Program-made: the position numbers and the translations under genes
Shown here: positions 29,272-38,010 of the stretch, in pieces
Layout of the letters: each line of letters starts with the position of its first letter
Position numbering within the stretch: the stretch's first letter is position 1
Source: an uncultured bacterium
GTDB taxonomy: Bacteria; Chlamydiota; Chlamydiia; Chlamydiales; SLFE01
Direction: 5' to 3'
Length of the DNA: 64,000 nucleotides
Assembly (NCBI GenBank): GCA_964584775.1
Contig: CAZPBC010000002.1
Location: 19,627-83,626 of the forward strand
The notes under the pieces: generated by a model
The model's input: the letters and a program-made list of their open reading frames with translations, nothing else
The model's database searches: none
What the model was told of the DNA's origin: nothing

Positions 29272-30318
29272 TCAGAAGCCGACACGGATGCCGCCGTAGA
29301 GTCCATGAAGCATCAGGTTAGAGCCGTTATCCGAAGTGGACCCACCCCCGGCACCAGTCACAGCACCTGCAGTTCCATCGAAAATATTCTCTTGCCAAAG
29401 CTTGCGTATCTGAGGAAGGTTCCACCAGTTGATGAACTCATATCCCAAGTGCAGATCGATATGGCGTCCACAATAACAGATTTTATAGGAGAGCCCTGTT
29501 TGGAGATGGACACCAGGGGTGCAGAGTGGGTAATCGGAAATGATATCGCAAAACGCAAAAAACTCTTCTTGATTGACAAAGGTCTCAATGTAAGCCTCTG
29601 ACTCCTGATAGCCTGCAACAACGGAAAACGCTCCACGGACAATCCAATCCAAACCGCACATCCAAGAAAGACGGTAATCGGTACCGAGTTCAAAACCGAG
29701 TGCCTTGTAGTCGGAGTTCCAAAGAGCAATCTCACACAATAAGTTACAGTCGGGCACTCGAGAATCAATATTCTGTTCGAGGCGGAGTCCTTGGAGACCA
29801 AAAAAGGTGTTGATACAGTGCCCTTCACAGAGAGAAAATTGACGTCCGACAAGCAGGTCGACTGTCTGATAGTGCAGGGTATTTATGCTCATCAGTTGCC
29901 CTACTGGAAAACCGGATGGGTTGTAGAGGGACTCCAAGTATAAAGTCGTAGGGCTATCACCACAGCAATCTGCACTATCAGATTGACGGGTCCAGAAGTA
30001 GGTATAGTGAGCCATCAACTGATAATCACAGTGGCAGCCGAGTGGGGAAGCTAGATGGATGCGGAATCCTGGATCCCAGCGGTACTCAACAGAAAGGTAG
30101 TCCACATCGGTGACTCCATTCTCTTCTTGCACATAGGCAGCATAATCCTGGCCCGTCTTACACGCGTGCCAGTAGAGAACATCCACGCCCACCTCTAAAT
30201 CATCAAAAAGGCAACAATCCGTAAGACAACCACACGTTCCTCCATAAACAGTACCCACCTGCACGATGAAGGCAACCAAAAATCCGAATAAGAAACGTGT
30301 GGCGTTGGTCATGAACAT
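29272..30318 (-). CDS. Cysteine-rich beta-barrel outer membrane protein, paralogue 1 (most divergent)
   Basis: 348 aa with a signal peptide. DVLYWHACK, SDYKALGFELG, LCTPGVHLQTGLSY, C-terminal NLMLHGLYGGIRVGF. Confidence 0.85.
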   Translation of the reverse strand: MFMTNATRFLFGFLVAFIVQVGTVYGGTCGCLTDCCLFDDLEVGVDVLYWHACKTGQDYAAYVQEENGVTDVDYLSVEYRWDPGFRIHLASPLGCHCDYQLMAHYTYFWTRQSDSADCCGDSPTTLYLESLYNPSGFPVGQLMSINTLHYQTVDLLVGRQFSLCEGHCINTFFGLQGLRLEQNIDSRVPDCNLLCEIALWNSDYKALGFELGTDYRLSWMCGLDWIVRGAFSVVAGYQESEAYIETFVNQEEFFAFCDIISDYPLCTPGVHLQTGLSYKICYCGRHIDLHLGYEFINWWNLPQIRKLWQENIFDGTAGAVTGAGGGSTSDNGSNLMLHGLYGGIRVGF

Positions 30319-30327
30319 CCTCAGGCG

Positions 30328-31329
30328 TTAGAAGCCGACACCCATGCCTACAAAGAGGCCGTGCATCATCAAGTTTCCACCTGTAGACGAAGTCGTTGTC
30401 TGCTGCCCTGCAATCCCATATTGACGGATCTGTGCGACATTCCACCAATCGGTGAACTCATATCCAATGCGGAAGGTGAAATCGCGGTCGCACCAGCATT
30501 TGTCGTAAGAGAGTCCCACCTGTAGATGAACACCTGGGGTGCAGAGACCCTTATCGTCGCTATACTCTCTCGCTCCTATGAAGGTGTCACTCACAAAAAA
30601 CGACTCCTCTCTCTCAACATCGTTGCAACCAGCCACGAAGGAGACACCCGCACGGGTGAAGAGTCCTAAACCACATTCAAGGTCATAGTTGTAAAGAGCT
30701 CCAAGCTCAAGACCGAGAGCTTTGTAATCAGAGATCCAGGATAAGTCGGTAAAGTTGCCAATCGCAACCGTCTGGTTACGCTGGACCAGTCCCTGACGGA
30801 TTTTGACTCCTTGGATTCCAAAGAAGGGCTTGATCTTCTGACACTTACAGAAGCAGAACTCATACCCAAGAAGCACATCAAAGGTTTGATAAGTGAGCGT
30901 GTTCCTTGCATCGATCTCACCAAGAGTGCTGTTAGGATCAGAACCGTTGGAGCTGATCAAAGCCACATTGGTTCCCGATTCCACATGATCACTTCCGCTC
31001 GCCCAAAGATAGGTGTAGGATGCACACATGTCCCAGCCGCAATAGACATTTTCTTTTCCTGCATAGAGACGGAACCCAGGCTCCCAGCCCATCGGAGCGT
31101 AGTGGGGCTCAGCAGCTGTCAAATTTGTGACAGAGGTGTCGATGGTGACACCATACTGAGGGTTATCCTTGCAAACATTCCAGAAAAGAAAGTCAGCGCC
31201 GACACTCCAACCCCCACAGGGATCGAAGCACTCATCGGTCGGGCAGCATTGATCTGCCTGTATTGGAGACACTTGAAGTGCAAACAACGCACTCAAAGTG
31301 AGTAGTTTTCGGAAAAATTGGCTCATCAA
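30328..31329 (-). CDS. Cysteine-rich beta-barrel OMP, paralogue 2
   Basis: 333 aa; signal peptide, CCPTDECFDPCGGWSVGADFLFWNVCK, CFCKCQ, LCTPGVHLQVGLSYDKCWCD, NLMMHGLFVGMGVGF. Confidence 0.88.
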   Translation of the reverse strand: MMSQFFRKLLTLSALFALQVSPIQADQCCPTDECFDPCGGWSVGADFLFWNVCKDNPQYGVTIDTSVTNLTAAEPHYAPMGWEPGFRLYAGKENVYCGWDMCASYTYLWASGSDHVESGTNVALISSNGSDPNSTLGEIDARNTLTYQTFDVLLGYEFCFCKCQKIKPFFGIQGVKIRQGLVQRNQTVAIGNFTDLSWISDYKALGLELGALYNYDLECGLGLFTRAGVSFVAGCNDVEREESFFVSDTFIGAREYSDDKGLCTPGVHLQVGLSYDKCWCDRDFTFRIGYEFTDWWNVAQIRQYGIAGQQTTTSSTGGNLMMHGLFVGMGVGF

Positions 31330-31395
31330 AAGCTCCTTGTCTCGTTAAAAAATTGCTATATTATTCTGAAGATAGGTCAACGGACGATTTAGTGC

Positions 31396-35924: not shown

Positions 35925-35961
35925 TTAAAAATCGCTCCTTATTGATTCATATATTTTGGGC

Positions 35962-36975
35962 TTAGAAGCCAATATCCATTCCAACAAATAGTCCGTGCAT
36001 CATCAAGTTTCCGATAGAGCCTGATGTTGTCACGTTGCCTCCAGGTAGAGGATGTTGACGCACTTGTGGGATATTCCACCAGTCTTGGAACTCGTATCCA
36101 GCGTGGAAGCTGAAGACACGGTCACACCAGCACTTCTCGAAAGAGAATCCAACTTGAACGTGCATTCCTGGAGAGCAGTACCCAGGATTTCCAGTGAACT
36201 CTAAACTTTCAATCGCAGAACCATCGTCAATCTGTTCAATATCTTGATAGTCGTTGTTACCAGCAACAAGGGAAAGAGACGCTTTTGTGAAGAGTCCGAG
36301 TCCACACTGTAGGCTGTACTGGTACATCGTTCCAAGCTCAAGACCTAGAGCTTTGTAAGTCGACTCCCATGCGATTGTTTCTATGGGAAACTCGTCGTCA
36401 GTAAGGTGTGCAAGAGAGTCAAAGTTTTGCTGAATACGAACGCCTTGAATTCCAAAGAAAGGCTTCACAGACTGGCACTCACAGAAGCAGTACTCATATC
36501 CCATAAGGACATCAAAATCTTGATACTGAAGGCTGTTCTTCGCGTTGATGTCGAAGAGGCTGTCAGAAGTAAAGCCCACTGTATTCACAAGGGTATTGTT
36601 TCCAGCTTCAACAAAGTTGCTTCCGTTGGAGCGGAAGAAAGTATAAGAGGCTGAGAGATCCCATCCACAGTAGACGTTCTCTTTGCCAAGACGGATACGG
36701 AATCCAGGATCCCAGCCCGTATTCGCATACTTGTAGGTCGTTGTGGTCACTGGGGGATTGTTGTCGTCAATGACGACTGCAAAATCAGGGTTGTTTTTGC
36801 AGGCATGCCAGTAAAGGAAGTCAATTCCGACGCTCCAACCACCGCACATGTCACCCACGTCGCAGCAGCTAAAGCAGTCTGTCTCAGGGCAGCAGGTCGC
36901 TGCACTTGCCTGTGCCGTCACCATGGTGAACGCTGCAAGCAAACTTAAGCTTAAGTTTTTGATTGTTTTATTCAT
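35962..36975 (-). CDS. Cysteine-rich beta-barrel OMP, paralogue 7
   Basis: 337 aa; CCPETDCFSCCDVGDMCGGWSVGIDFLYWHACK; NLMMHGLFVGMDIGF. Confidence 0.88.
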   Translation of the reverse strand: MNKTIKNLSLSLLAAFTMVTAQASAATCCPETDCFSCCDVGDMCGGWSVGIDFLYWHACKNNPDFAVVIDDNNPPVTTTTYKYANTGWDPGFRIRLGKENVYCGWDLSASYTFFRSNGSNFVEAGNNTLVNTVGFTSDSLFDINAKNSLQYQDFDVLMGYEYCFCECQSVKPFFGIQGVRIQQNFDSLAHLTDDEFPIETIAWESTYKALGLELGTMYQYSLQCGLGLFTKASLSLVAGNNDYQDIEQIDDGSAIESLEFTGNPGYCSPGMHVQVGFSFEKCWCDRVFSFHAGYEFQDWWNIPQVRQHPLPGGNVTTSGSIGNLMMHGLFVGMDIGF

Positions 36976-37011
36976 AGAGTTCTTACTCCTTGTTTGTTTT
37001 CGTTAAACTTT

Positions 37012-38010
37012 TCAATAAACAACATCCATACCCAAAAAGAGGCCGTGCATCATGAGGTTTGCGTTAGAGGGAGATGTTGCGATTCCTGTAATTTGTTGTT
37101 CTTCGACGTAGCGTCTCACCTGTGAGACGTTCCACCAGTTCACAAACTCGTAACCCATGTGAAAACTCAAGAGATGGTCACACCAACACTGGTCATACTT
37201 CAGGCCTGCAGATAACTGGAGCCCAGGAAGGCAGTAGACCTCCTGGCCATGGTAGTGGAGTCCTACCTCTAGAGTTTGGTCTAGGAAGAGGTTCATATCT
37301 TGTGTCGAATCTTGATCATAGCCAGCCACAAAGGCAGCAGCAGCTTTCGTGAAGAGTCCCATTCCAGAGCCAAGACACCAGTCATTTTGTGTTCCTAGCT
37401 TGAGTCCAAGCCCTCTGAAGTCAGAGCGCCAAAGGAGAGTCTCTTCGTTAATTTGTGCGTCGTCCATGCCGACAACAGCGGTCTCTTGATCCAGCCGGAC
37501 TCCTTGAAGCCCAAAGAAGGGGGTTACAGAGAACTCTTTATTCACAGAACAGCATCGGGTGAGGACGAGATCAAAGGTCTGATACTGAACGCTATTGCGA
37601 GCTTTAAAGGCGTCATCGATGGGAACACTGTTTCCTAGCTGGAAGAGAGTACTGTAGATAAATCCACTGTCTACGCTGGATTTGGTGCTTGACCAGACAG
37701 AGGTATAAGAGGCGTCCATTCCGAAGTTGCCACAGAAGCAGGGGGTGCCCATTTGAACACGGAAACCAGGCTCCCACTCAGGCTTATTGAATTCGTAAAC
37801 TCCTTCTGCCGTGTTTCCTTGGATCGGTTGAGGATCAAAAGAGACTGCGTAATCGAGGTTAGAAACACACGCTTTCCAGCAGAGAAAATCGACTCCAAAT
37901 GAAAGTCCCTCAAGAAGACTAAAGCACTCAGAATTAGAGGCAGCAGGGAGCGGCGATGCATATAGCATCAGAGTGCCAAGAACTGCAGTGAGACCTCTTG
38001 AAATTCGCAA
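37012..38010 (-). CDS. Cysteine-rich beta-barrel OMP, paralogue 8 (probable TTG start)
   Basis: 332 aa. The start codon at 38010-38008 reads TTG. Signal peptide; ECFSLLEGLSFGVDFLCWKAC; NLMMHGLFLGMDVVY. Confidence 0.8.
   Translation of the reverse strand: MRISRGLTAVLGTLMLYASPLPAASNSECFSLLEGLSFGVDFLCWKACVSNLDYAVSFDPQPIQGNTAEGVYEFNKPEWEPGFRVQMGTPCFCGNFGMDASYTSVWSSTKSSVDSGFIYSTLFQLGNSVPIDDAFKARNSVQYQTFDLVLTRCCSVNKEFSVTPFFGLQGVRLDQETAVVGMDDAQINEETLLWRSDFRGLGLKLGTQNDWCLGSGMGLFTKAAAAFVAGYDQDSTQDMNLFLDQTLEVGLHYHGQEVYCLPGLQLSAGLKYDQCWCDHLLSFHMGYEFVNWWNVSQVRRYVEEQQITGIATSPSNANLMMHGLFLGMDVVY

Follow-up and report, generated by a model that had tools for sequence, protein, structure and literature searches.

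An eight-gene tandem array of cysteine-rich, predicted outer-membrane beta-barrels of the PF05150 family in an uncultured Chlamydiales bacterium

Cysteine-rich outer membrane proteins (OMPs) encoded by multigene families are known from several Chlamydia-related bacteria. In Waddlia, 11 putative beta-barrels with 13-19 cysteines each have been reported (PMC2878342), and seven of the 11 rank within the top 40 proteins by abundance in the sarkosyl-insoluble fraction (PMC4184618); where PMC13021175 cites Kebbi-Beghdadi 2015, the Waddlia OmpA proteins are described as adhesins. Estrella has a 10-member "OmpA family" (PMC6490308), 219 copies of the Pfam family PF05150 have been counted in the Planctomycetes-Verrucomicrobia-Chlamydiae (PVC) superphylum, 36 of them in Simkania (PMC7145651), and the proteins of Rhabdochlamydia that resemble MOMP (the major outer membrane protein) have orthologues in Waddlia and Simkania as well (PMC9723776). 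Here, we analyze a tandem array of eight genes, numbered W1-W8 in the order of their transcription on the minus strand, in a 64,000-nucleotide stretch of an uncultured bacterium of the order Chlamydiales (GTDB lineage SLFE01; assembly GCA_964584775.1, contig CAZPBC010000002.1, positions 19,627 to 83,626), referred to below as the window. Its family had been described before in Estrella, Waddlia, Simkania, and Legionella, and the array agrees with PF05150 and with the cysteine-rich OMPs of Chlamydia-related bacteria in every feature that could be tested, homology having been assessed against Estrella.

Two structurally described proteins are the natural points of comparison. PF05150, the family listed by NCBI as "Lpg1974 family pore-forming outer membrane protein", was founded on the MOMP of Legionella pneumophila (Lpg1974/Lpg2961; PDB entry 9NH1, porin I of the Dot/Icm machine), which is tethered to peptidoglycan by LD-transpeptidases (PMC11841132). 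The MOMP of the Chlamydiaceae is part of a disulfide-linked outer membrane complex, and its four variable domains form an extracellular cap; 9NH1 and the MOMP of the chlamydial elementary body (EB) are both trimers of 10-stranded barrels, the latter with a cysteine-rich periplasmic region (PMC13254160).

Family, fold and relatives of the array proteins

An earlier sequence-only reading of the window had described eight consecutive minus-strand genes of 326-348 amino acids (aa) at 29272-38010, all encoding a signal peptide and a C-terminal beta-signal with an aromatic last residue. The list of open reading frames (ORFs) matches this description exactly (Table 1), and both features are present in 8/8 proteins. 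When a profile of W1-W8 was searched against all six-frame ORFs of the window, these eight only were recovered (E 1e-134 to 1e-171), and their alignment has a mean column identity of 56% with 51 invariant columns. Every copy has a GGAG-type ribosome-binding site ahead of the gene and a Sec-type signal peptide in which a charged or basic n-region is followed by a hydrophobic core and a small-x-small cleavage site (among them VQA/D, IQA/D, LSA/D, ASA/A, LPA/A, and VYG/G, the slash marking the cut). The C-terminus reads ...HGL(F/V/Y).G...(G/V)(F/Y) throughout, as in MHGLF.GMDVGF, with hydrophobic residues at positions 1, 3, 5, 7, and 9 from the end. Cysteines number 11-18 per protein (3.3-5.2%), compared with 1.14% in the 35 other ORFs of the window. 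The cysteine-dense N-terminal motif that had also been ascribed to all eight proteins holds for W2-W7, where it reads CCP..ECFDPCGGW, whereas W8 has the variant CGCLTDCC and W1 a single cysteine (SECF).

PF05150 (Legionella_OMP) matched 8/8 proteins at 88.9-115.2 bits against a cut-off of 25.4, spanning profile positions ~4-281 of 281; a scan of W1-W8 with NCBIfam yielded no meaningful match. A profile search of PDB sequences brought up 9NH1, "Major outer membrane protein", as its one significant relative (E = 2.4e-15), and a profile was needed to reach it, as a single-sequence phmmer search of PDB with W5 returned a chance match only. Searched against 1.84 billion proteins, an eight-sequence profile retrieved 5,284 related cluster representatives at E <= 0.001, 213 of them at E <= 1e-30.

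Structures were modeled with AlphaFold2 for the central copy, W5 (predicted local distance difference test (pLDDT) 86.9, predicted template modeling score (pTM) 0.82), and for the most divergent copy, W8 (pLDDT 86.6, pTM 0.83). The W5 model is all-beta with approximately ten long strands, and W8 adopts the same topology. In both, a signal-peptide helix and a low-confidence segment of ~15 residues are followed by approximately ten antiparallel strands, with four turns of 2-4 residues alternating with five hairpin tips. Foldseek searches of PDB with the two models placed the three 9NH1 chains at the top (E 1e-13 to 1e-15, target-normalized template modeling scores 0.76-0.81, and 0.77-0.81 for W5), with the 10-stranded OpcA, Pla, and OmpT as runners-up. 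From these models, W1-W8 are predicted to be outer-membrane beta-barrels of PF05150 with approximately ten long strands and a fold like that of 9NH1, and the barrel architecture anticipated by the sequence-only reading is upheld by both modeled copies. The likeness to Legionella MOMP includes an N-terminal cysteine pair before strand 1, but identity in the structural alignments is 13-15%, and the Legionella residues opposite the cysteine columns of turns T2-T4 are not cysteine in the aligned stretches.

The looser label "OmpA-/MOMP-like" survives in part: the proteins are of the Legionella-MOMP type (PF05150) and are neither Chlamydiaceae MOMP (PF01308) nor classical OmpA. PF01308 had no match at E <= 1 for any of W1-W8. 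Alignment of the array-family profile to Chlamydia trachomatis MOMP with hhalign, using a MOMP sequence validated on PF01308 (855 bits), gave a probability of 18%, and PDB entry 9oq7 "Major outer membrane porin" stayed below threshold in the profile search (E = 0.096). On these results, W1-W8 are not detectable members of the Chlamydiaceae MOMP family. The two groups are nevertheless alike in predicted architecture, with 10 strands, a flexible cysteine-rich periplasmic N-terminus (DPCDPC..WC in Chlamydiaceae MOMP, CCP..ECFDPC here), cysteines in tight periplasmic turns, and a presumed part in a disulfide-linked outer membrane complex, although W1-W8 are ~50-60 aa shorter.

Among named proteins, Estrella lausannensis P0183 and P0186 come closest; they are 33-35% identical over their full length (BLASTP E = 3e-51) and lie within a nine-gene, same-strand PF05150 array in which one gene is split (contig CWGJ01000014.1, locus L027). 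The Estrella proteins share with W1-W8 the N-terminal pattern C..DPC...DFLYW..C and a C.C at the last presumed periplasmic turn. They are, however, ~20-40 aa longer, their array is flanked by Peptidase_S26/CT021 and OEP/ABC transporter genes instead of ruvA and nth, and by neighbor-joining the copies group mostly by genome and not as one-to-one orthologues. Tandem arrays of PF05150 genes also occur in loci of Waddliaceae, Anoxychlamydiales, and Verrucomicrobiae metagenome-assembled genomes (MAGs).

The arrays of the Waddliaceae MAGs (L001-L005) occupy the same locus as W1-W8, and their OMPs are 30-40% identical to those of the window and have the same cysteine pattern. The shared gene order is heptosyltransferase (GT9), coiled-coil gene, ruvC, ruvA, the array, nth, and mnmE, with flanking proteins 41-72% identical to those of the Waddliaceae MAGs; the order ruvC-ruvA-array is common to L001, L002, L003, and L005, and nth and mnmE lie beyond the array in L002, L003, and L004. 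Because of this synteny and protein identity, the window organism is probably a family-level relative of the Waddliaceae MAGs. The arrays differ in size, with four OMP copies in L002 and L003 vs eight in the window, and W2-W7 form a clade of their own. Taken together, PF05150 membership, the Estrella homology, and the synteny with Waddliaceae MAGs bear out the kinship with multigene OMP families of Chlamydia-related bacteria that had been proposed from the sequence.

Two further observations were made at this locus. The gene adjoining ruvC (39210-41144, minus strand) encodes a 644-aa coiled-coil protein rich in E, Q, and K, whose position is kept in L001, L002, L003, and L005 at 24-29% identity. 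In L002, the four-copy array is directly followed by a 338-aa protein (13166-14182 of that locus) with a signal-like N-terminus and tandem YNPSYDYDDRDY repeats; it has no counterpart in the window, where an unrelated 163-aa ORF (28715-29206) takes that position.

Cysteine placement and the proposed envelope function

Topology was assigned from the DSSP string of the W5 model together with the standard OMP rule, by which termini and short turns are periplasmic and long hairpins face outside. In W5 numbering, six cysteine columns are invariant in 8/8 copies (C30, C49, C93, C256, C271, and C273). Thirteen columns are kept in at least five of the eight: four in the N-terminal tail, seven at the four short turns or within 2 residues of them (C93; C153/155/157; C213; C271/273), and the remaining two, C49 and C256, further up the barrel wall. 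On this model, the conserved cysteines would sit almost wholly in the N-terminal tail and the four turns, on the periplasmic side. The same 13 columns are cysteine in 57-93% of 72 environmental relatives (median 15 cysteines per relative), and thus the cysteine architecture belongs to the subfamily and not to the W1-W8 locus alone.

Sequence variation follows the opposite face of the model. Going outward, column conservation among W1-W8 drops from 0.73 (periplasmic half of the strands) through 0.58 (outer strand half) to 0.43 (tips), and insertions and deletions are concentrated at the hairpin tips; W8 carries a 12-residue Gly-rich insertion within its last predicted surface loop. In line with the diversification that the sequence-only reading foresaw, divergence is focused on the predicted surface-exposed parts (conservation 0.43 at the tips).

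We consider it likely that the array encodes Sec-exported barrels that are cross-linkable by disulfides and have diversified surfaces, within the PF05150 family to which the cysteine-rich OMPs of other Chlamydia-related bacteria (Estrella, the Waddliaceae MAGs, and the MOMP-like proteins of Simkania) belong as well. Following export, the proteins would be inserted into the outer membrane by the beta-barrel assembly machinery (BAM), and the barrels would probably be trimeric, by analogy with Legionella and Chlamydia MOMP. Their cysteines would be gathered at the periplasmic rim, to which the flexible N-terminal tail (CCP..ECFDPC) would contribute four and each tight turn one to three. There, in an oxidized infectious stage, intermolecular disulfides among barrels and with periplasmic cysteine-rich proteins could produce a rigid outer membrane complex. 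As the predicted surface tips vary most in sequence, the copies would offer different surfaces, and outward hairpins that differ by paralogue could provide different adhesion or host range, and possibly different channel properties, on one conserved scaffold. The eight copies could also be differentially expressed. Peptidoglycan tethering belongs to Legionella MOMP, whereas disulfide cross-linking is what we presume, by analogy, for W1-W8.

Several points weigh against this proposal. There is no omcA or omcB partner gene within the 64-kb window. The placement of cysteines at the periplasmic rim derives from the DSSP string and the OMP rule, and W1 lacks most of the N-terminal cysteines, so cross-linking need not be alike in all copies. 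The OmpA1-11 proteins of Waddlia chondrophila, which are genome-clustered and have 13-19 cysteines vs 11-18 in the tandem copies here, are likened to W1-W8 by description, and we infer homology to them by way of Estrella, the Waddliaceae MAGs, PMC9723776, and PMC7145651. Localization, disulfides, oligomeric state, and adhesin or porin activity of W1-W8 are likewise read by analogy from anatomy, Waddlia biochemistry, and the 2026 MOMP structure. Finally, sigma-70-like promoters are not enriched in the spacers of the array (5 found vs 10.2 expected), and the transcription units described below are drawn from terminators.

The main rival holds that W1-W8 are mainly porins with differing solute selectivity, in which the cysteines stabilize the barrel or the trimer and there is no envelope-wide lattice, a reading that overlaps with the one proposed here. 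It is favored by the NCBI family name, which includes "pore-forming", by the top structural match being "porin I" (9NH1), and by the mention of Legionella MOMP as a porin where PMC11841132 cites Gabay 1985 and Younas 2018. A 10-stranded barrel is narrow, however, and the chlamydial EB MOMP, a 10-stranded trimer, has been described as not compatible with passive transport (PMC13254160). Paralogue differences concentrate in the outward hairpin tips, and cysteines in a flexible tail and in the presumed periplasmic turns would fit intermolecular bonds better than intramolecular ones. Weighing these points, we find a mainly porin role possible but unlikely, and disulfide-cross-linkable barrels with diversified surfaces remain the preferred reading.

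Age of the copies and evidence on recombination

In a neighbor-joining tree with 200 bootstraps, W2-W7 form a clade with 94% support, within which only W4 and W5 are close to each other (76% aa identity). W1 and W8, which share 32-40% identity with the rest of the array, are divergent and unreliably placed by this method. For W2-W7, similarity is highest (35-40%) with the gene that ends the Waddliaceae MAG arrays. Their separate clade and this similarity to one position in the related arrays suggest that W2-W7 are a lineage-specific later expansion from one ancestral copy.

The array had also been regarded as a likely hot spot of gene conversion, a claim that the comparison of the copies does not support. 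The proportion of synonymous differences (pS) is 0.65-0.85 in 28/28 pairs and thus saturated, with a synonymous distance (dS) of ~1.5 for W4/W5 by the NG86 method, and the ratio of nonsynonymous to synonymous distances (dN/dS) is 0.10-0.29 wherever dS could be estimated. The longest exact word common to any two copies is 27 nucleotides (nt). In a GENECONV-like permutation test for conversion tracts, none of the 28 pairs passed Bonferroni correction (minimum p = 0.0055 vs a threshold of 0.0018). The source organism of the window is met again in several metagenomes, and over 1.3-3 kb of the array, contigs of four different samples match the window at 100% identity. Apart from terminator tails, the array contains no homopolymer tracts of the kind used for phase variation. 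We conclude that the copies are old, stable, and under purifying selection, with no sign of ongoing gene conversion in these sequences.

Cassette-type antigenic variation, with one expression site and silent cassettes, was rejected as all copies are complete. Each of the eight is full length with a start codon, a ribosome-binding site, a signal peptide, and a beta-signal, and four have a terminator of their own.

One short contig bears on a more general form of this idea, in which the array would be a recombination-driven surface-variation system whose gene conversion or unequal crossing-over keeps making chimeric surface proteins. Contig L028 (ENA ERZ27256798 k141_195483, 1,096 bp) contains an exact W4(5')::W5(3') hybrid gene, equivalent to window positions 34638-34826 joined to 32477-33407. 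The first 189 nt match W4 exactly, 21 nt ahead of the start codon included, and from nt 166 to its end the contig is identical to W5, placing the junction inside a 24-nt word, TGGAACGTCTGTAAAAACAACCCA, which is the longest exact word that W4 and W5 have in common. The contig is either the product of an unequal crossover with a 1,254-bp deletion or a chimera of assembly or polymerase chain reaction (PCR).

This exact hybrid, and the difference of 4 vs 8 copies at the syntenic locus between lineages, speak for such a recombination system. Yet the hybrid contig is short and may be an assembly or PCR chimera, as assemblies frequently break within the array; pS is saturated throughout the 28 pairs, none of which shares an exact word longer than 27 nt; no tract exceeds the Bonferroni threshold, and conserved motifs inflate such runs; contigs of four samples are 100% identical to the window; and the copies are complete, several with their own terminator, with no phase-variable tracts. 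A surface-variation system driven by continuing recombination is therefore improbable. The narrower proposition that L028 records a genuine unequal crossing-over at the 24-nt word, and that array variants with other copy numbers and chimeric barrels exist in natural populations, fares somewhat better but is still doubtful. If it were true, it would imply slow recombinational reshuffling of outer-membrane surfaces on a conserved, cross-linkable scaffold and would explain the 4-vs-8 copy difference at the ruvA/nth locus.

The last alternative, that W1-W8 are not outer-membrane barrels but secreted or periplasmic cysteine-rich proteins or artifacts of gene calling, has next to nothing left to it and is effectively refuted by the full-length Pfam matches far above threshold in W1-W8, the 5,284 related cluster representatives at E <= 0.001, two confident barrel models resembling solved OMPs, the C-terminal beta-signal, and a dN/dS far below 1.

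Transcription units, other genes of the window and meaning of the array

Coordinates of the array, its anchors, and its noncoding elements are collected in Table 1. For W7 and W8, internal ATG codons are likely the true starts, giving 332 and 346 aa, since these lengths equal those of the called database proteins P0003 (332 aa) and P0016 (346 aa).

Table 1. Array genes, flanking anchor genes, and noncoding elements, in window coordinates
Feature	Position	Strand	Description
W1	37012-38010	minus	332 aa, TTG start, first in array; divergent, 11 Cys, without N-terminal CC motif; PF05150 104.6 bits; 32-40% identity to other copies
W2	35962-36975	minus	337 aa, 15 Cys; additional CC in N-terminal tail
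W3	34917-35924	minus	335 aa, 15 Cys
W4	33816-34805	minus	329 aa, 13 Cys; nearest paralogue W5 (76% aa, 75% nt)
W5	32562-33542	minus	326 aa, 14 Cys; PF05150 115 bits; modeled
W6	31453-32439	minus	328 aa, 13 Cys
W7	30328-31329	minus	332 aa if begun at the ATG at 31326 (more likely), 333 aa if at TTG; 15 Cys
W8	29272-30318	minus	348 aa (called database protein 346 aa), last, most divergent, 18 Cys; PF05150 88.9 bits
ruvA	38099-38704	minus	Pfam; upstream anchor of array
ruvC	38697-39197	minus	Pfam; upstream anchor of array
mnmE	26723-28093	plus	Pfam; anchor on the other side of the array
nth	28090-28704	plus	Pfam; anchor on the other side of the array
Terminator after W3	34860-34893	minus	15-bp stem, -19.5 kcal/mol, then T7
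Terminator after W4	33592-33625	minus	Hairpin and T9
Terminator after W5	32507-32536	minus	Hairpin and T9
Terminator after W6	31396-31427	minus	Hairpin and T7
Palindromic repeat element, ~166 nt	33651-33816		Inverted repeat; begins at W4 stop codon; -61.8 kcal/mol, z = -9.5
Palindromic repeat, second copy	41182-41348		~80% identical, intergenic; -77.2 kcal/mol, z = -10

No terminator was found in the spacers W1-W2 (36 nt), W2-W3 (37 nt), and W7-W8 (9 nt). On the basis of the strong intrinsic terminators after W3, W4, W5, and W6, the sequence predicts approximately five transcription units: [W1-W2-W3], [W4], [W5], [W6], and [W7-W8]. The W4-W5 spacer is unusually long (273 nt) because a palindromic element is inserted at the W4 stop codon. 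Both copies fold into a long hairpin. The element looks MITE- or REP-like (miniature inverted-repeat transposable element; repetitive extragenic palindrome), and a partial arm of it lies at 23511-23537. Rfam searches over the whole window and a permissive scan of the W4-W5 spacer gave nothing credible, and no match for the palindromic element.

Three further groups of genes were observed elsewhere in the window. At 10316-17763 on the minus strand, three consecutive genes (498, 495, and 1,441 aa) carry the microbial-type PARG catalytic domain PF10021, the largest (1,441 aa) also with a weak Macro-domain match, in a stretch of low GC content (0.40-0.43); the trio may be a paralogous ADP-ribose-processing cluster, possibly of effectors. 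At 23653-26663 on the plus strand, three adjoining ORFs (269, 310, and 331 aa) without a Pfam match have in common the motifs F[LIF]SDLS..LY and GKY[IV].P and C-terminal hydrophobic segments, and for the second and third, tblastn gives weak matches (24-28% identity) that lie beyond mnmE in L004 and L002; the three look like another small cluster of paralogues, which may be membrane or inclusion proteins. At 50085-55073 (minus strand), a gene adjoining one for cytochrome b encodes a protein of 1,220 aa that combines several cytochrome c domains with a FixO-like region; this respiratory module may merit attention in a Chlamydia-like genome.

For the family, the array is a further case, from an uncultured lineage, of cysteine-rich PF05150 barrel arrays replacing or complementing MOMP in Chlamydia-related bacteria, and alone it leaves the general picture unchanged. 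It is modestly useful in three respects. It points to a conserved ruvA/nth locus with 4-8 copies in Waddliaceae-like genomes, the predicted placement of its cysteines parallels the cysteine-rich periplasmic region of the 2026 chlamydial MOMP structure, and its copies are old and stable and not actively homogenized. Together, these results make the family a reasonable choice for comparative work on the building of disulfide-linked envelopes outside the Chlamydiaceae.

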